Below, in pieces: positions 2,977-22,172 of a stretch of DNA of 32,147 nucleotides (position 1 is its first letter; each line of letters begins with the position of its first letter). Position numbers and translations under genes: made by a program. The notes beneath the pieces were generated by a model that was not told where the DNA came from, ran no database searches, and saw only the letters and a program-made list of their open reading frames with translations. The stretch is taken from positions 1 through 32,147 of IMG/VR virus record IMGVR_UViG_2537562172_000009. One strand, written 5' to 3'. The DNA comes from a virus (Duplodnaviria; Heunggongvirae; Uroviricota; Caudoviricetes).

Positions 2977-3486
2977 ATGTTTGATTTTCAGGTTTCCAAA
3001 CATCCCCACTATGACGAAGCATGCCGCATTTTCGCACAGCGTCACAACATGGCGAAGCTGGCCGAGCGTGCAGGTATGAACGTTCAAACGTTACGTAACA
3101 AGCTCAACCCGGAACAGCCTCACCAGTTCACGCCGTCTGAATTGTGGCTGCTGACTGACCTGACCGAAGACTCAACCCTCATTGATGGTTTTTTAGCGCA
3201 GATTCACTGCCTACCATGCGTGCCGGTTAATGAGTTGGCTAAAGACAAATTGCAGTCTTATGTCATGCGCGCAATGCGTGAACTCGGCGAACTGGCGAGC
3301 GGCGCGGTATCTGATGAACGTCTGACCATTGCCCGTAAGCACAACATGATTGAAAGCGTTAACTCCGGCATTCGCATGTTGTCATTGTCGGCTCTGGCGC
3401 TGCATGCACGTCTGCAGACTAATCCAGCTATGTCGAGCGTGGTCGATACCATGAGCGGTATTGGCGCATCGTTTGGCCTGATTTGA
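2977..3486 (+). CDS. cII: 186 CII-like transcriptional regulator
   Basis: ATG at 2977 preceded by AGAGGGA (8-nt spacing); 169 aa, same length as 186 CII as I recall it; HTH MAKLAERAGMNVQTLRNKL; position directly after apl/cox as in 186. The ORF-track start at 2947 is a TTG without SD. Confidence 0.7.
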   Translation: MFDFQVSKHPHYDEACRIFAQRHNMAKLAERAGMNVQTLRNKLNPEQPHQFTPSELWLLTDLTEDSTLIDGFLAQIHCLPCVPVNELAKDKLQSYVMRAMRELGELASGAVSDERLTIARKHNMIESVNSGIRMLSLSALALHARLQTNPAMSSVVDTMSGIGASFGLI

Positions 3487-6736: not shown

Positions 6737-6850
6737 TTTGTCTCTATATCATGAACATACATCACAAAACTGATCTTCATTTTTTCTTCCCATCTTTTGC
6801 CATTACGTGCTACTGTATAAACATACAGTATTTTTATTGGGAGGGATTTC

Positions 6851-7033
6851 ATGGTTGGGGAGCATTTCAGCCGGGCGCAGCAAAAGTGGGCTTGTGTGCA
6901 ATTCATCGCCGAGGTATCTCTGATTGCAAACTGCAAACCATCAGACCTAAAGCTTGCTCTGACTCTCATTGCTGACTTAGCAAATAGTGAAAATAATGAA
7001 ACCGAAGAAGGCATGTTTTATGAGGCTGAGTAG
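6851..7033 (+). CDS. small acidic hypothetical protein
   Basis: 60-aa ORF; strong SD GGGAGGGA 5-8 nt before the ATG; acidic C-terminus (SENNETEEGMFYEAE); internal repeat FIAEVSLIAN / LTLIADLAN; stop overlaps a perfect palindrome. Confidence 0.4.
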   Translation: MVGEHFSRAQQKWACVQFIAEVSLIANCKPSDLKLALTLIADLANSENNETEEGMFYEAE

Positions 7034-7053
7034 GTTATGTAACTAACCTACTC
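7028..7053. repeat. perfect 10-bp inverted repeat with 6-nt spacer
   Basis: GAGTAGGTTA-TGTAAC-TAACCTACTC; overlaps the stop of the small ORF; not followed by a T-run. Confidence 0.6.
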
Positions 7054-7067
7054 TGAAAAAACAATCA

Positions 7068-7094
7068 AACCGGCACCATGATTGCCGGTTTTTT
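7068..7094 (+). terminator. rho-independent terminator ending the early/replication transcript
   Basis: AACCGGCA-CCATGAT-TGCCGGTT followed by TTTT(ATGTGT): GC-rich core stem, 7-nt loop, U-run. Confidence 0.65.
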
Positions 7095-7194
7095 ATGTGT
7101 TCTATCAAAAGGATGGGGTCTGACATTCTCATCATCAGAATTGTGTTATTTTAGTGCAACTCATTCGTCGTTAGACATTGTAAGGGCAATGTAT

Positions 7195-7905
7195 ATGAAA
7201 CCAAGCACACACTGCGTTTATTGTGGTGTTCTCATGAACAGGATTGAAAATCACCCCCACTGCCGCTCAGTTGAACACATGATCCCGCAAGTTTCAGTCT
7301 CCATTCATAGAACCAACGGCGAAGGCGATTTCCATGTATGCAAAAAGTGCAATGCCGATAAAAGCCGAATTGACGAGGTATTGGGTGTCATTTGCCGCAT
7401 GGTTGGTGAGCACTCAACAGGCAGTTTCGATGCTATCAATAAATTCAAAAATGCTCTTAAAAGAAATGATTCAAAATTCCGCGAGGCATTCCAAAGTGTT
7501 AAACATACAGGAAGAGGTGCGCAGATAACCTTACCCCTTGAAGGCAAAGAGATTTATCGATATGGCTCGTGGTTAGCAAAGGGCGTCTTTTTCTTAGAGT
7601 ATGAGCAGTTGTTGCCGCCAGATAAATTAATCTGGGTAAATATCGTTCGCCATGATGAAGTAATGGCTATTAGAGACATGTATAGAAATCAGCGTGGTTC
7701 TGAAGCTTTTGAGGACTTGTCCAAAAACAGCAATGTGCCAAACATTAACGGGGAATCTTTCCTGATTGTTGGCCGTGAAGCTAAGGAAATGTTCATATGT
7801 TTCAATCGCGTAATGATGTTCCATATAAAAATATTAGATAAGTCATTCATTAATCAAAAAAAATGCAAAAAATCACTACTTATGCTTGATAAGAGAATTC
7901 GATAA
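7195..7905 (+). CDS. HNH-motif nuclease-domain protein with uncharacterised C-terminal domain (accessory)
   Basis: 236 aa from the ATG at 7195 (SD TAAGGG 8 nt upstream; the ORF-track start at 7078 lies inside the terminator loop). N-terminus carries CxxC (CVYCG), EH (SVEHMIPQ) and H-x-CxxC-N (HVCKKCNADK), the HNH/zinc-finger nuclease arrangement. AT-rich. Confidence 0.65.
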   Translation: MKPSTHCVYCGVLMNRIENHPHCRSVEHMIPQVSVSIHRTNGEGDFHVCKKCNADKSRIDEVLGVICRMVGEHSTGSFDAINKFKNALKRNDSKFREAFQSVKHTGRGAQITLPLEGKEIYRYGSWLAKGVFFLEYEQLLPPDKLIWVNIVRHDEVMAIRDMYRNQRGSEAFEDLSKNSNVPNINGESFLIVGREAKEMFICFNRVMMFHIKILDKSFINQKKCKKSLLMLDKRIR

Positions 7906-8093
7906 AAATTTGAGATTAGGTAGATGCGGTTTGGCATTTGTCGCATGCGTTGAACTCACCACTCTTTCTGTGGGTATCTATTCGTTGGTAGCCGGTAGCC
8001 TTATGTAAAGCCACGCGGTTTGCTTTTAGTGGAATAGTTTTCATTGATTATTGTAAGATTGAGATCTTTATCTTAAAGAGGATTTTGCTACGT

Positions 8094-9701
8094 ATGTCTG
8101 CACAAAGCATATCAAGCCTTTTGAAGGCTAATAAATGGATCGATACGAATGTAGGTAAGTTTGAGTTTAAAAAAGAAATTGGTGAAGGGGGCAATAGCAA
8201 CGTGTTCCTTTTTTCTAATTCAGGGCATGATTTTGCAATAAAATTCTTAAAGCCAAGTAAAGATCATAGAAAAACAGATAGGTTTAAAGATGAGTTTTTT
8301 TGTGTATCTCAAATGCCATCCAACAAATACATTGTACAATACTACCACTTAGATAAAATAACAATCGATGATGTTGATTATTACATCATTATCATGAAGC
8401 CATACGCTCGGTCCTTAAAAAAAGATTTTGCCAGTACAAACTCTGCTGAAGAATATGAACGCGATGTGCGGAAATTATTTAATCATTTATTTAATGGGTT
8501 AAGACATATTCATAGCCATGGCGTTATTCATAGAGATCTTAAGCCTGAAAATATTTTTATTGACAGTGCTACCGACTCTTATGTAATCGGAGACTTTGGA
8601 ATATCAAGATTCGATGATGAGTTTTTTGCACGTTTGTCCCAGACCAGAGAAAGTGAACGATTGGCAAATTATAAATTTTCCGCACCAGAACAGTCATCGG
8701 GAAATCATGAGATCACTGTACGTAGCGATATTTACGCGCTCGGTCAGATTATGCAATATTTTAGTACTGGAGATGTGAGCAAGGGCAACGGAAGAGAAAA
8801 ATTATCCTATAGTAATGTTAGCGAGTTTATTGCCATTCTGGATGATATTATAGGGAAGTGTATCATGCACAACCCCAACGACAGATTCTCTTCTTTGGAT
8901 GATATGGCTGAATATTATAAATCGAAACTTGAATCTAATAAAAGATTAAAAGAGGCCCAGTTTAGGCAAAAAGAAGAGTCGGAAATGTGGGGTTTCCTTC
9001 ATGCATTTGATGACGCAATAGTAAGATCTGTCCCCCATATAAATAGAGTGGAAAAAATCACTTCGGATTTAGACATTGAATTATTTCTTTCAAGCATTGA
9101 TGGCACTATTAGCACAGAAAACACAAAAGATTCACTCTGGATGATTAAGTCGGATGGTGGGGATCTAAACTACTACGGGTCAAAATTAAAGCAAGGCAAA
9201 TACTTTGAGATAAACTTTGGTGGGTTCATCACTGAAGTGAATATAGATTCAATTGATGTATATTATGATAGCCACTATCATCATAAAAACTTCTTCATAA
9301 TCATCATCAGTGGCATGCCTCCTTTCGAATTTAACGACATATCGGACTTATCAAAGAAAAAGATGAGAAGTAAAATAACCTCAAAAGATGATTATTGTAT
9401 TGAGTGGAATGGGTATTGTTTAGATCCTAACGATGTAAGAAATAAATACGTAAAAATTGAAGGGACAACATATAGGGTTAGTCACGAGGATTTCAAGGAT
9501 GTACATCGCTGTATAAAAAGAGATGCATTCCTTGTTGTTCCAACCGGTACACCATCATCACATATGAATGATCGGTCTGTTGCAACGGACCTAATAAATG
9601 CGTGCTTAACGAACCCAAATGGACTAGTTACAACAGATGTAGACCTTTATTTGAGAAGAATCAGGGACCATTATCAGTCTTGGATTCGTAACAGCTTGTA
9701 G
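8094..9701 (+). CDS. Hanks-type Ser/Thr protein kinase fused to an about 250-aa domain of unknown function (accessory)
   Basis: 535 aa from the ATG at 8094 (SD AAAGAGGA upstream; the TTG at 8085 is too close to it). Gly-rich loop IGEGGNSNVF, beta3 Lys in FAIKFLK, catalytic loop HRDLKPEN, DFG (VIGDFGIS), APE (FSAPE), subdomain IX DIYALG. Very AT-rich. Confidence 0.8.
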   Translation: MSAQSISSLLKANKWIDTNVGKFEFKKEIGEGGNSNVFLFSNSGHDFAIKFLKPSKDHRKTDRFKDEFFCVSQMPSNKYIVQYYHLDKITIDDVDYYIIIMKPYARSLKKDFASTNSAEEYERDVRKLFNHLFNGLRHIHSHGVIHRDLKPENIFIDSATDSYVIGDFGISRFDDEFFARLSQTRESERLANYKFSAPEQSSGNHEITVRSDIYALGQIMQYFSTGDVSKGNGREKLSYSNVSEFIAILDDIIGKCIMHNPNDRFSSLDDMAEYYKSKLESNKRLKEAQFRQKEESEMWGFLHAFDDAIVRSVPHINRVEKITSDLDIELFLSSIDGTISTENTKDSLWMIKSDGGDLNYYGSKLKQGKYFEINFGGFITEVNIDSIDVYYDSHYHHKNFFIIIISGMPPFEFNDISDLSKKKMRSKITSKDDYCIEWNGYCLDPNDVRNKYVKIEGTTYRVSHEDFKDVHRCIKRDAFLVVPTGTPSSHMNDRSVATDLINACLTNPNGLVTTDVDLYLRRIRDHYQSWIRNSL

Positions 9702-9920
9702 CCCGATGAGCAAAGTTAAGAATCAGCCAATCAATCCGGCAGCGTGAATGTTGGTTTTTTATGCCATTTTTCCGCCATTTCTCCATTTTCTAGCCATGCA
9801 TGCATCTGGTGCATGGTTTTGCATGCGTCAGTGCTGCCCGTTCCGTACGTGCGCCGCCAGAGCTGGCGCGGCTTCGGAGTGGTCATGCAATTGCATTAAA
9901 ACCGACCCATAAAGCGGGCA

Positions 9921-9939
9921 GGCGTGGCGGGGAAAGCAT
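9921..9939. other. cos site (cohesive-end sequence of P2/186 type)
   Basis: GGCGTGGCGGGGAAAGCAT followed by TGCGCGC, matching the 19-nt cohesive ends of 186 (and differing at 2 positions from P2's) as I remember them; located between the replication/accessory side and the portal gene, where cos lies in a P2 prophage. Confidence 0.6.
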
Positions 9940-10048
9940 TGCGCGCAGCACACACTTGCAATTTGATATTTTTGGTGTAAAAAATCGGTGTCAATGAGTA
10001 GAAGATGAAAAAATAATAACCAAAGGTTACTAAATCAAGGATGTGCCG

Positions 10049-10867
10049 ATGAAAGTTAGCTATGACGTTGTCATCAAAAGTGGTGATCAAGAAGTTGATA
10101 TGGAGTATGGCCTTGATACCCTCTCTGGAACGGCTGAGGTGACATGCATACTAGCAGAGGCAATACTCAGAAAAAAAATTATTAAGCGCCGCACTCATGT
10201 TAACCCTGCGCGAGCGGTTCTCAAACAAAGCTTTAAAAGTTCTTATGGTCAAAACTTCGACTTGATTGTTAATGAGCCGGAATTAGCTGCCGAATTAAAA
10301 AAAATGACCCGTTCTGTGTTCTCGGAAGTCATGGGGTATTTTATTTCTGAATCTCTATATCTGGAAACTAAGGAGCTATCTCCAAAAGCTGCAGGAATTA
10401 TTGAGGAGCTTGAGGAAATTGAAGATGAACTTATTGATCGTATCAGACAACCTTTGGTAAGGATGCATAGGATAAATCTTCAAAAAAACTTTGATGTTGA
10501 ACTTAACTATAAAAAACCTGCTGGCAAACAAAGAATAGCAAAGTTAGACACAATGACTGCTACAAACTTGACACAATCAAAAATAATGCCCGGTCAAGTT
10601 AATATTAACGCAGTTATTACTCGATTTAATGCGAGAACTGGAAATGGTAGGTTAGTTATCGAAGGTGAAGATGATACAGTAGCCTTTGGTTTTTACATGC
10701 CTTTAAAGGCTATACCCGCCGCTCAAAAAAGATTGGTCTCATTAAATTTACACAATAATAATGGCAGGCAAGATAACTACACATATCTAAAACTTACTGT
10801 TAGTAAAGTTGTAGTAAAAAGTGGTGATGTGGTGAAATATCTAATCCGTATGGTTGAAACTGTATGA
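10049..10867 (+). CDS. hypothetical soluble protein, first gene of a coupled two-gene accessory cassette
   Basis: 272 aa from the ATG at 10049 (AAGGA 7 nt upstream); AT-rich; near-identical short motif close to both termini (YDVVIKSGDQEV and KVVVKSGDVVKY); stop overlaps the next start (ATGA). Confidence 0.6.
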   Translation: MKVSYDVVIKSGDQEVDMEYGLDTLSGTAEVTCILAEAILRKKIIKRRTHVNPARAVLKQSFKSSYGQNFDLIVNEPELAAELKKMTRSVFSEVMGYFISESLYLETKELSPKAAGIIEELEEIEDELIDRIRQPLVRMHRINLQKNFDVELNYKKPAGKQRIAKLDTMTATNLTQSKIMPGQVNINAVITRFNARTGNGRLVIEGEDDTVAFGFYMPLKAIPAAQKRLVSLNLHNNNGRQDNYTYLKLTVSKVVVKSGDVVKYLIRMVETV

Positions 10868-11589
10868 GAAAGGTGTTGCTGTCTTCGGCTGGCGTGATTG
10901 TAGCTGTGTGCGCCTTGTATTACTTCAACTTCGGAGTAAACGGACATTTATCCAGCAAGACTGATGTTTGGGCGCAGTTTGGTGATTATTTGGGTGGTGT
11001 CGTCAACCCTATACTTTCATTTATTACAATTTACCTCCTTATAAATTCAATAAAACTTCAAAGGGAGGCTAATTCCAGCCTGATCGATGAAGTAAAAAGG
11101 CAAGAATCTTTAGAAGAGTATAAAAAATTTGAAGTGAGATTTTTCCATTTGGTTGAATGTCAGGATTCTAACTTTGAAAGGTTTTGTGTTCAAGTTGGTG
11201 ATGTTGATGGACAAACTGACGGGGTGGTCGAAGAATTTACAAGTGGTGCAGCCGTAACTTATCTTGAAGATAATATTGTAATTTTAGTTAAAGCCAAGGT
11301 GAAAAAAGAGGTAATAACAAAGTGGTTAAGTGAAGTGGATGCTAATGATTGCATTTTTTCAGTGGTGCGTCGCTTTTATTTGATTGTGAAGTTGATAGAT
11401 AATTGCGGGGTTGAACGGGAAGATTATTATGAAACATTAGTTAACTTAACTGACATAAAAATAATATCTTTAGTTGCAATGGCTTGTACATACTACGAGT
11501 GGGATATCGTAAAGTATATCCATGACAGTAAAATACTTGAACGAGATGGAGTTAAAGAGTTTGTTTCGCAAATATCCACTCACGATTGA
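10864..11589 (+). CDS. hypothetical membrane protein (2 predicted N-terminal TM helices), second gene of the cassette
   Basis: 241 aa; hydrophobic segments LLSSAGVIVAVCALYYF and GDYLGGVVNPILSFITIYLLINSI followed by a charged soluble domain; ATGA overlap with the upstream gene. Confidence 0.6.
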   Translation: MRKVLLSSAGVIVAVCALYYFNFGVNGHLSSKTDVWAQFGDYLGGVVNPILSFITIYLLINSIKLQREANSSLIDEVKRQESLEEYKKFEVRFFHLVECQDSNFERFCVQVGDVDGQTDGVVEEFTSGAAVTYLEDNIVILVKAKVKKEVITKWLSEVDANDCIFSVVRRFYLIVKLIDNCGVEREDYYETLVNLTDIKIISLVAMACTYYEWDIVKYIHDSKILERDGVKEFVSQISTHD

Positions 11590-11590
11590 G

Positions 11591-19500: not shown

Positions 19501-19930
19501 CGCCGTGCCGCAGCTCAGAAACAACCCCGATATGTTGCGCCTTTTCGCCGATAACGGGCATACCGATTCCCGGCTTGCCAGCTCACTCTCGTTTGAAAAG
19601 GTGTACGTACTGAATGTGGTGGTGACCGACTTCACCGGCGACCTCGATTTGATATTCGTGCCGGTGCAGGCGTGGCTGCGTGAACATCAGCCGGACATTA
19701 TGACCACCGACGACGGGCGGGAAAAAGGATTCACCTGGATTATTGATATCAATAACGATGATTCGCTCGATATCAGTATCAGCCTGAGGCTCACCGAGCG
19801 CACGCTCGTCAACGAGGTCGACGGCGCACTGCATGTCAGTTATGCCCCTGAGCCGCCCCCGCCTGAGCCGGTGACGCGCCCGGTTGAGCTGTACGTTAAC
19901 GGCGAGCTGGTGAGTAAGTGGGATGAGTGA
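19454..19930 (+). CDS. R: tail completion protein R
   Basis: 158 aa; position and size match P2 gpR; start overlaps the 3' end of lysC (an alternative ATG lies 9 nt downstream). Confidence 0.8.
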   Translation: MNSMQKHKSLRKALINAVPQLRNNPDMLRLFADNGHTDSRLASSLSFEKVYVLNVVVTDFTGDLDLIFVPVQAWLREHQPDIMTTDDGREKGFTWIIDINNDDSLDISISLRLTERTLVNEVDGALHVSYAPEPPPPEPVTRPVELYVNGELVSKWDE

Positions 19931-20372
19931 GTTAACCGCACTGCAGGAGCGCCTTGCCGGTCTGATTGCCAGCCTGTCACCGGCGGCGCGGCGGCAAATG
20001 GCCGCTGATATTGCGAAGCGCCTGCGCACCAGTCAGCAACAGCGCATTAAGCGCCAGCAGGCACCCGACGGCACCCCGTATGCCGCCCGTAAACGCCAGC
20101 CGGTGCGGAGCAAGAGAGGTCGTATCAAGCGCGAAATGTTCGCCAAACTGCGCACCAATCGCTTTATGAAAGCCAAAGGCAGCGACAGTGCGGCGGTTGT
20201 GGACTTTACCGGCAAGGTGCAGCGCATGGCGCGGGTGCATCAGTACGGCCTAAAAGACCGGCCAAACCGCAACAGCCGGGATGTGCAGTACGAGGCGCGC
20301 CCGCTGCTGGGTATTAACGCTGATGATGTTTCTGTTATTAATGATATTATCATTGGATCTTTATCAAAATAA
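19923..20372 (+). CDS. S: tail completion / virion morphogenesis protein S
   Basis: 149 aa; overlaps the R stop; position and size match P2 gpS. Confidence 0.8.
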   Translation: MSELTALQERLAGLIASLSPAARRQMAADIAKRLRTSQQQRIKRQQAPDGTPYAARKRQPVRSKRGRIKREMFAKLRTNRFMKAKGSDSAAVVDFTGKVQRMARVHQYGLKDRPNRNSRDVQYEARPLLGINADDVSVINDIIIGSLSK

Positions 20373-20397
20373 TAGTGTTAAAAGGTAGCGGCGAAAA

Positions 20398-21441
20398 ATG
20401 GGTGGTGCATATTTATTCGATATCATAAAGGACATGCTGCCAGTTTTATCAGGCCTACTAGGAGTGTTGGGTATTCTCAATGTGTTTAAAACTTCGAATA
20501 ATCGCCTTAGCTTTTGGGGATGGCTGGCTGTTTTTGTAATTGTGATCTCCACGATTGCAACACTGCTATTAGCGAAAAAGGAAAAAAATGATAATGAGCG
20601 GGAAAAGATACAACTCCAAAACAAAATAGATAACATATTAAGAGACGTAGCCAAGGCTCGTGAGCCAATTGGGGAGGTTTCCATAACCTATTGGTCGCTG
20701 CTTCCTGATTCGAATCAACTGGTTCGAAAATACAAAGACTATCTTAATGAAAAAGCAAGAGGTGAGGTCGAAAATTTTTCATTCCATAACCTAACGAAGA
20801 CTAATAAAGATTATTTCGGGACTACAATCGATTTGGATGGGAAGCTCGCCGTTTTTAGCATTGATGAAAAAAACAAGTATTGGCCCTCGGGTTCTTTCTC
20901 TGAAATCGGTCTTTTGGCCTCAAATTTTTCAATAATGCTCTGTATCAATTCCAAACACACTAATGCTAAGGATGTGCGTTTTATCATAGGGGCAAGGAAC
21001 AACTTAGATTGGTGTGCTCTTGCCTTGCTGCCAAGAACAAGTGATATCTTTTATGACGTCAAAAAAGATAAAATTGGATTGGCAACAACCATTACATATG
21101 ACAAAAAATGGGTGTATTCCAATGGCGTTATTTCCTCGGTTAGAGATTTCTTCGGTTCGGATGTCTTTTTTGTTCTTCCCTCTACAGATTCTCGATTTTT
21201 GAATGACTATCTAAAGTCCATAGGAGCACCTCAGACGCTTATAGAGTCAAATAAAATAAAGTCCGAGATCATTGCTGGTATGAGCACAGAGTCAGTGAGC
21301 GTCAAAATGGGGGATGGCCAACGTTTTAATATCTCAGGAGAACATCTAAAAAAATATAACTCGAAAGATGGCAGAACTTTTTTCTATATCAAAATGCCTT
21401 TGTCAGAAAAAGAAGTTAGTGAGCTCGAGACAAAAAATTAG
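20398..21441 (+). CDS. hypothetical membrane-anchored protein (2 TM + coiled coil + about 250-aa domain), moron in the S-V slot
   Basis: 347 aa; AT-rich; hydrophobic segments LPVLSGLLGVLGILNVF and WLAVFVIVISTIATLLLA, then a Lys/Glu/Asn-rich stretch; sits where P2 carries orf30 (my recollection). Confidence 0.6.
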   Translation: MGGAYLFDIIKDMLPVLSGLLGVLGILNVFKTSNNRLSFWGWLAVFVIVISTIATLLLAKKEKNDNEREKIQLQNKIDNILRDVAKAREPIGEVSITYWSLLPDSNQLVRKYKDYLNEKARGEVENFSFHNLTKTNKDYFGTTIDLDGKLAVFSIDEKNKYWPSGSFSEIGLLASNFSIMLCINSKHTNAKDVRFIIGARNNLDWCALALLPRTSDIFYDVKKDKIGLATTITYDKKWVYSNGVISSVRDFFGSDVFFVLPSTDSRFLNDYLKSIGAPQTLIESNKIKSEIIAGMSTESVSVKMGDGQRFNISGEHLKKYNSKDGRTFFYIKMPLSEKEVSELETKN

Positions 21442-21486
21442 CACGGACCATTAGTATAGTTTGATTCTGGTTTGTGTCATGCCTCA

Positions 21487-21524
21487 CAGATAGGAAGAAA
21501 GTTGTTCATCACTTCTCCTATCTG
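21487..21524. repeat. hairpin-forming inverted repeat between the moron and gene V
   Basis: CAGATAGGA(A)GAA ... CTTCTCCTATCTG: a 9-bp stem plus a 3-bp extension with one bulge and an about 12-nt loop; ends about 12 nt before the V start codon. Confidence 0.5.
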
Positions 21525-21536
21525 CATTCTGTCCGT

Positions 21537-22172
21537 ATGAATACTTTAAACAATATCCAAGAACTGGCCCGCGCGATTCGCAACCTCATCCGCTCAGGCG
21601 TGGTGACGGAAGTCGACACCGTAAAGGGGCTGTGCCGCGTACAAAGCGGCGGGATCCAGACTACATGGCTGAACTGGCTGACCACCCGCGCCGGTCGTTC
21701 GCGGACGTGGTGGGCTCCCTCGGTCGGTGAGCAGGTTCTGCTGCTGGCAATCGGTGGCGAGCTTGATACCGCTTTCGTGCTGCCGGGTATTTTCTCCGAC
21801 GATAACCCCGCCCCGTCTGCCTCGGCGGATGCGTGGCATGTGGCTTTCCCTGATGGTGCGGTCATTGAGTACGAGCCCGAGGCCGGCGCGCTGACGGTCA
21901 GCGGTATCAAAACTGCCGACGTGACGGCATCGGAGTCCATCACTGCAACCGTACCGCTGGTACTGGTGAAAGCCTCGACCAGTATCACCCTCGACACCCC
22001 GGAGGTGATTTGCACCAATAAGCTGACGACAGCGACGCTTGAGGTACAAAAAGGCGGCAAGATGAGCGGCAATATCGAACATACCGGCGGGTCACTGTCG
22101 TCTAATGGCAAGGTACTCCACACCCATAAACACCCGGGCGACAGCGGCGGGCAAACGGGGGCACCGTTATGA
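21537..22172 (+). CDS. V: baseplate assembly / spike protein V
   Basis: 211 aa from the ATG at 21537, the size I recall for P2 gpV; precedes W-J-I. Confidence 0.85.
   Translation: MNTLNNIQELARAIRNLIRSGVVTEVDTVKGLCRVQSGGIQTTWLNWLTTRAGRSRTWWAPSVGEQVLLLAIGGELDTAFVLPGIFSDDNPAPSASADAWHVAFPDGAVIEYEPEAGALTVSGIKTADVTASESITATVPLVLVKASTSITLDTPEVICTNKLTTATLEVQKGGKMSGNIEHTGGSLSSNGKVLHTHKHPGDSGGQTGAPL

Follow-up and report, generated by a model that had tools for sequence, protein, structure and literature searches.

We analysed a 32,147-nt stretch of viral DNA (Duplodnaviria; Heunggongvirae; Uroviricota; Caudoviricetes), the IMG/VR record IMGVR_UViG_2537562172_000009 from position 1 to 32,147, which we refer to as the window. 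A sequence-only reading of it had singled out an AT-rich open-reading frame (ORF) of 347 amino acids (aa) between the tail genes S and V. The window is a complete 186/P2-type prophage of Escherichia coli O141:H4 strain P13-6 (100% match), whose annotation begins with int near position 172 and closes with gene D at the right end. The ORF call, the GC profile and the Pfam assignments of both flanking genes confirmed the AT-rich ORF at the S–V junction, where the following features lie:

19923-20372, + strand: gpS tail-completion gene (PF05069, 1e-36)
20300-21550, no strand: low-GC island of ~1.25 kb, a horizontally exchanged cassette (GC profile; the interval is empty or holds other cargo in relatives)
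20373-20397, + strand: 25-nt spacer between S and the ORF (fold -0.7 kcal/mol, z +0.6)
20398-21441, + strand: the ORF, 347 aa with an ATG start, RefSeq hypothetical protein WP_000508390.1, member of an unannotated family with two transmembrane (TM) helices, a stalk and a globular domain
21473-21488, + strand: TGTGTCATGCCTCACA, a TGT..ACA dyad that position and analogy alone suggest as the Ogr/B-type activator site of the V late promoter
21487-21524, + strand: hairpin with arms CAGATAGGAAG and CTTCTCCTATCTG and no U tract, within the V-promoter region and downstream of the dyad
21537-22172, + strand: gpV baseplate spike gene, first gene of the V operon (PF04717, PF18715, PF18946; RefSeq start, the ATG at 21537 and not a GTG further upstream)

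The ORF is a genuine gene under purifying selection. At its base composition, 347 codons without a stop would occur by chance with a probability of ~9e-12, and comparison with a 98%-identical copy in Escherichia sp. E1V33 gave 10.5 synonymous and 9.5 non-synonymous differences, a dN/dS of 0.25, which marks it as a real, constrained gene. It is also firmly shown to be horizontally acquired, dispensable accessory cargo of the S–V (orf30) hotspot. Measured per 100 nt, the GC content is 0.33–0.45 within the island (~20300–21550), against 0.61–0.66 before and 0.60–0.68 after it. In a reference prophage with an empty slot (locus L003, S–V gap of 68 nt), similarity ends ~60 nt before the S stop codon and resumes at the V start, so the exchanged module is ~1.25 kb long and takes in the last ~20 codons of S (from ~20312). 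Between two Escherichia prophages, the cargo ORF (20398–21441 in the window vs. 8001–9044 in locus L007) shares 98.1% nucleotide identity whilst the flanking S and V genes share only 94.0% and 93.7%, which suggests that the cassette was exchanged more recently than the two prophage backbones diverged. The island is flanked by no repeats beyond chance (just 11–13-nt repeats at chance level) and holds a single ORF, on which grounds we rejected a transposon or insertion-sequence origin; an Rfam search of the island returned no match and no non-coding RNA.

The presence and absence of the ORF in related genomes bore out its accessory nature. It is carried by 3 of 5426 complete E. coli genomes, and among 70 E. 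coli genomes with a related S–V region three carry it, the others inspected being either empty or occupied by a minus-strand pentapeptide-repeat gene. We also surveyed 80 IMG/VR loci, those with the gpS genes most closely related; S and V both occur in 74 of them, and in these the slot was empty in 38 (71–84-nt gap) and filled in 36, with 723–3159 nt of 31–44% GC, and a homologue of the ORF was present in just one of the 74. The slot is thus variable and the ORF far from ubiquitous. The 36 filled loci carry cargo from at least 30 protein clusters with no relation to one another, encoded for the most part on the minus strand, and in four of these loci (L068, L076, L054 and L056) the cargo matched defence models in PADLOC: AriA (1.6e-44) and AriB (6e-10) of PARIS, an NsnA/PD-T4-2_A-like gene (5e-31) accompanied by a 205-aa partner, PDC-S15 (7e-38) and PDC-S31 (7e-41). 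A recurrent 444–466-aa plus-strand cargo protein (six loci) and the orf30-like proteins had no PADLOC match. The orf30 position is one of three P2 regions reported to acquire foreign genes (PMC3091744; PMC6823313), P2 does carry a non-essential ORF at this site, as the sequence-only reading stated, and defence systems have been noted inside P2 tail genes (PMC13586616); detailed hotspot studies have dealt with the A–Q, Z/fun and tail–CI loci, not with S–V (PMC9122126; bioRxiv 10.1101/2024.10.15.618418).

An exhaustive profile search over 1.84 billion cluster representatives showed that the ORF product belongs to an unannotated two-TM membrane-protein family, newly delineated here, with 162 representatives at E ≤ 1e-3 and 52 at E ≤ 1e-10. 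Most matches are full-length (330–350 aa), the architecture is the same across representatives, none is annotated and the named ones are all "hypothetical protein". A word-indexed homology search had recovered only three clusters, and repeats with the family profile did similarly poorly, because TM words saturate the candidate list. Members derive from Enterobacter, Serratia, Pantoea, Klebsiella, Nitrosomonas and Bradyrhizobium, with one on a Kosakonia genome contig, and the 44 that we checked had no significant Pfam, PADLOC or PDB match. All Enterobacterales relatives with readable context (L002, L007, L008/L025, L009/L026, L010, L027/L067 and L110) lie in the S–V slot of a P2-like prophage, on the + strand, 14–58 nt 3′ of S and with a GC content of 35–39%, sharing 29–97% identity with the ORF protein. 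As the S and V genes of these phages share 63–78% identity with those of the window (96% in L007), whilst the homologues fall to 29%, the cargo diverges much faster than its flanks. Members at greater distance (~20% identity) are encoded on chromosomes, in Bradyrhizobium, Nitrosomonas and soil metagenomes; the loci read around them showed no recurrent neighbour or partner gene, a scan of viral contigs found none of them, and a metagenome scan yielded six short contigs with little context. Searches by tblastn with the ORF protein against the phage collection, and with the ORF protein and a distant member against PLSDB plasmids, gave no match.

Two of these settings differ from the rest. A distant member designated P0074 has a DUF4760 membrane protein gene on one side and, on the other, a gene for a 335-aa nucleotidyl cyclase of class III (PF00211, 4e-6), the gaps being 20 and 10 nt; the cyclase does not match the PADLOC PycC model, and the trio (L017, 884–3629) resembles a three-gene operon reminiscent of cyclic-nucleotide defence systems. 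In L009, an additional 247-aa gene with a CxxC...H..CxxC HNH-like pattern (7217–7960, + strand) stands between S and the 347-aa homologue, matching PF14279 below threshold (1.3e-4) and PADLOC PDC-M01B at 4e-4. The contig of L009/L026 (CACSKA010000005.1) is labelled "Chryseobacterium sp. 18061", a Bacteroidota name, whilst its P2-like prophage encodes structural proteins 63–88% identical to those of E. coli; contamination with enterobacterial DNA or mislabelling of the assembly is the probable explanation.

The protein encoded by the ORF is built from the following parts:

20437-20487, + strand: TM helix 1, residues ~14–30 (hydropathy, AlphaFold helix 2–26, family alignment), with a small-residue face of G19, G22 and G25
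20488-20520, + strand: TM1–TM2 loop, residues 31–41 (KTSNNRLSFWG; family alignment), in which G41 is invariant
20521-20574, + strand: TM helix 2, residues ~42–59 (hydropathy; AlphaFold helix 39–88)
20575-20661, + strand: charged helical stalk, residues 60–88 (AlphaFold helix 39–88, continuous with TM2), in which E62 is nearly invariant
20665-21438, + strand: C-terminal α/β domain (C-domain), residues 90–347 (~255 aa), of unrecognised fold (AlphaFold model)

Both TM helices predicted by the sequence-only reading were supported, with Kyte–Doolittle 19-residue peaks above 1.6 centred at residues 15–23 and 45–53 and by an AlphaFold model that runs from a helix at 2–26 through a short loop and a single long helix at 39–88 to the α/β domain, which extends to residue 347. 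The model became usable only with the 44-sequence family alignment (predicted local distance difference test (pLDDT) 89.7, predicted template-modelling score 0.77), as a 4-sequence alignment gave a pLDDT of 40. The Lys/Glu/Asn-rich segment at residues 59–90 (K6 E4 N4 D3 R3; pLDDT 87–93), originally described as a linker, is instead a helical stalk, because the modelled helix runs on from TM2. Four residues are invariant across the family (G22, G41, P163 and D250) and nine nearly so (K11, E62, P90, Y112, D204, G243, S247, G307 and P334); K11 and E62 sit on either side of the hairpin at the same membrane face, the C-domain carries a conserved polar motif, SNGK..S..D, and a GxGR motif, and conservation within the Enterobacterales members is highest in the TM region. 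The C-domain had no match among solved structures in the PDB, nor in a BFVD viral fold search; a PLAT-type fold recurred among weak matches that were too weak to assign.

The globular C-domain is probably cytoplasmic in the ORF protein, although the topology signals conflict. In the ORF protein itself the Lys/Arg counts (one in the N-terminal tail and five after TM2, vs. two in the loop) favour an N-in/C-in arrangement, whereas family-wide the TM1–TM2 loop is the most Lys/Arg-dense segment (2.75 per 11 residues). The number of cysteines in the C-domain is zero or two in 39 of 44 members, and the C182/C206 pair is found in all eight Enterobacterales members and nowhere else in the family.

The ORF appears to be wired into the late transcription of the phage. 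The 25-nt spacer from S contains no hairpin and no terminator, a sequence scan found no sigma-70-like promoter upstream of the ATG, and no intrinsic terminator was found flanking the ORF. As neither promoter nor terminator separates it from S, the gene is probably transcribed with the late operon, as the last gene of the late O operon, and expression in the lysogen independently of that operon is not indicated by these signals. Other prophages carrying a homologue all share the same arrangement. P2 differs, with a strong terminator (-29.6 kcal/mol, z -4.3) immediately 3′ of S and orf30 on the opposite strand behind it. P2 orf30 resembles the ORF in lying in the S–V slot and in being AT-rich, dispensable and a predicted membrane protein; it is unlike it in encoding 261 aa and in its insulation from the late operon, with which the ORF is co-directional. 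Homology between the two was rejected, as the P2 protein Orf30 (AAD03281) matched only at a BLASTP E-value of 4.2 and orf30-like proteins cluster separately.

Downstream of the ORF, the centre of the TGT..ACA dyad lies ~56 nt upstream of the V ATG, and the annotated pV activator site of P2 is centred ~55 nt upstream of its V start. The hairpin reported between the ORF and V is real, the region 21442–21540 that contains it folding at -27.6 kcal/mol (z -2.6), but it had been misread as belonging to the cargo. Hairpins of unrelated sequence, equally lacking a U tract, occur at the same site in L003 (~1994–2019) and L005 (~2986–3016), and the position between the dyad and the V ATG is common to prophages with the ORF as cargo, with other cargo and with none. 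A cargo-specific element was rejected on this basis, and the hairpin is part of the S/V junction, because relatives without the ORF also have one. The O operon may end at these junction hairpins, and they may overlap the V late promoter.

The explanation that we favour, tentatively and at somewhat less than an even chance, is that the ORF encodes a single-gene membrane module for phage exclusion or abortive infection, an anti-phage role to which its location (a slot where other phages carry defence genes), its architecture and a weak SLATT-like signal point. SLATT domains are predicted to be pore-forming, membrane-perturbing two-TM effectors of conflict systems (Burroughs et al. 2015, as cited in the DRT10 preprint 10.64898/2026.04.29.721553). 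NCBIfam SLATT_1 was matched by 11 of the 44 members (best 4.5e-5), SLATT_4 by one more and SLATT_5 by one, the SLATT_1 register was consistent (protein residues 6–87 against profile positions 23–98 of 132), and no family other than SLATT was matched by more than three members. The ORF protein has the SLATT-type architecture, a two-TM hairpin followed by an α-helix, by hydropathy and in the AlphaFold model. An effector-like hairpin would also agree with faint PADLOC matches in the family (gop and "Effector 2TM"), with the conservation of the TM region and with the N-in/C-in charge pattern of the ORF protein. The product would thus be an inner-membrane protein with a two-helix hairpin, a charged helical stalk of ~30 residues and a globular domain of ~255 residues. 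The globular domain, if cytoplasmic, might sense a cue from an infecting competitor, upon which the glycine-faced TM hairpins would associate and breach or depolarise the inner membrane, and this breach would stop the competing phage. The distant family members stand alone, consistent with a self-contained module. SLATT proteins, by comparison, are usually partnered with SMODS, SLOG or reverse-transcriptase genes, whereas the ORF family has its own large C-terminal domain, and we found no such neighbour in the window or in loci L002, L007–L010, L011–L020, L027 and L108.

Several observations weigh against an exclusion function. Lying 25 nt 3′ of S with no promoter and no terminator of its own, the ORF implies late-operon rather than lysogen expression, and the lysogen is the state in which a defence gene is normally needed, so a defence role fits awkwardly with the apparent expression. 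The ORF protein had no significant match in Pfam, PHROGs, NCBIfam or PADLOC (PADLOC-DB 2.0), its best hit in the last being gop at residues 13–89 (E 0.036), and the 44 relatives gave nothing above noise in PADLOC beyond two isolated matches near 0.01 (one to "Effector 2TM" at 0.0094). All SLATT scores lie between 13 and 20 bits, vs. a curated cut-off of 41, the Pfam SLATT models were silent (no match at E ≤ 1), three Enterobacterales members tested, the ORF protein included, had no SLATT match, and TM composition can inflate such scores. The co-conservation of C182 and C206 would suit a periplasmic C-domain instead. Finally, the hotspot location provides only guilt by association, as most S–V cargo, P2 orf30 included, is uncharacterised. 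A fuller version of the exclusion proposal, which we regard as rather doubtful, would be a new single-protein system, the fast-evolving resident cargo of a little-studied S–V hotspot, in which a SLATT-like hairpin is gated by a C-terminal sensor with a fold absent from the PDB, and which, being wired to the late operon, would act in the induced or lytic phase of the prophage, e.g. against co-infecting phages or satellites, and not in the quiescent lysogen.

The same late-operon wiring invites a different explanation, which we consider unlikely but worth weighing, namely that the ORF is a late-expressed membrane protein serving the lytic cycle of the phage itself, made together with the head, lysis and tail-completion genes of the O operon. 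Such a protein would act at the envelope with its C-domain in the periplasm, and may block the entry of superinfecting DNA, mask the receptor against loss of progeny on debris, or tune lysis. The co-directional placement of the ORF close behind S, with no intervening signal and 14–58 nt in every homologue-bearing prophage, is what this would predict, as is the fact that the O-operon terminator of P2 comes right after S, whereas here the first hairpin appears only beyond the ORF. A periplasmic C-domain would also agree with the charge density of the TM1–TM2 loop across the family, the cysteine parity of the C-domain and the C182/C206 pair of the Enterobacterales clade, but the five Lys/Arg residues within 11 residues after TM2 disfavour export of this domain in the ORF protein. 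The gene is dispensable and missing in most relatives, and as the distant homologues are chromosomal and lie outside phages, the function of the family must extend beyond a P2 lytic cycle. The PDC-S31 candidate defence gene likewise abuts S, with a gap of 5 nt, so the tight arrangement behind S cannot discriminate between an exclusion gene and a lytic-cycle gene.

Less probable again is a lysogenic-conversion or host-fitness moron unrelated to phages, acting for example in the envelope, in stress or in colonisation. Partition systems and cytolethal distending toxin are examples of cargo in P2 hotspots that does not serve defence (PMC9122126), and the carrier strains are porcine enterotoxigenic E. 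coli and O141 isolates. Against this, the ORF protein has no similarity to any virulence or metabolic family, the family is present in soil bacteria too, and fast divergence (29–47% identity, vs. 63–78% for S and V) together with exchange of the cassette is what one would sooner expect of conflict genes.

We think it very improbable that the ORF serves as effector to a signal generator encoded elsewhere, in a system where, by analogy with Pycsar and CBASS, a cyclic nucleotide or other second messenger from a host or phage enzyme would open the TM hairpin by binding to the C-domain. Effectors of the CBASS Cap15 and Pycsar PycTM type combine N-terminal TM helices with a C-terminal ligand-binding domain, and the ORF protein parallels them in placing a soluble domain, a potential gate, after a TM hairpin, whilst its SNGK..S..D and GxGR motifs could line a ligand pocket. 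The placement of P0074 beside a class III nucleotidyl cyclase and a DUF4760 protein is in keeping with such a system, but it is a single instance with a cyclase that PADLOC does not class as PycC, and the Pycsar idea was rejected as the association does not recur. Unlike the known effectors, the ORF has no cyclase or CD-NTase partner in its prophage, none adjoins it in any of the P2 slots or at the remaining chromosomal loci, and the C-domain had no match to a cyclic-nucleotide-binding, SAVED, β-barrel or Cap15-type fold. A virion or tail-assembly protein is ruled out by the absence of the ORF from most relatives and by the lack of any structural-family match (PHROGs, Pfam, BFVD).

Returning to phage exclusion, the ORF family is new, but its kind is already known, that of hotspot-borne prophage morons and candidate membrane exclusion proteins. 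The P2 genes old, tin and fun/Z, lambda RexB, P22 SieA and T4 Imm are prophage or membrane exclusion genes, several of them encoding small inner-membrane proteins. The ORF is like them a non-essential, AT-rich moron at a fixed hotspot of a temperate phage, without homology to any of them (PADLOC and PHROGs negative). The classical exclusion genes have their own promoters and are expressed in the lysogen; the ORF, unlike them, has no evident promoter. Gop of P4, from the gop-beta-cII locus and behind the noise-level PADLOC match, is a toxic protein in a P2/P4-associated defence system (PMC9122126); the ORF lacks the beta and cII partners and differs from it in size and in its C-domain. That P2-like prophages yield new defence systems is established, but published surveys have centred on the A–Q (old/tin) and Z/fun hotspots. 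Variability at the S–V slot is just as high, PARIS, PD-T4-2-like and PADLOC-candidate systems are already among its contents, and one of its recurrent occupants, always co-directional, is this rare unannotated family with a weakly SLATT-like hairpin and a confidently modelled but unrecognised C-terminal fold. Should the ORF prove to be an exclusion gene, it would represent a compact one-gene system with a new sensor fold, and its link to the late operon would prompt one to ask at what stage prophages deploy the defences they carry; should it not, it still offers a clean way to learn how P2 phages benefit from the S–V slot.

The S–V cargo was rightly described as a second, separate accessory locus of this prophage, the first being the A–Q hotspot with a PD-T4-6-type kinase. 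This "old/tin" locus (6850–11590) is also of low GC content (0.32–0.40) and encodes a 535-aa Ser/Thr kinase (8094–9701, + strand; PADLOC PD-T4-6, 8.9e-36), which the mad6 and MkoA kinase models also match, flanked by four unannotated ORFs (6851–7033, 7234–7905, 10049–10867 and 10864–11589). A gene for a DUF2511 protein (1244–1582, - strand) lies between the integrase and the CI repressor, an interval reported as another position of accessory and defence cargo in P2-like prophages (2026 NAR survey, PMC13586616).

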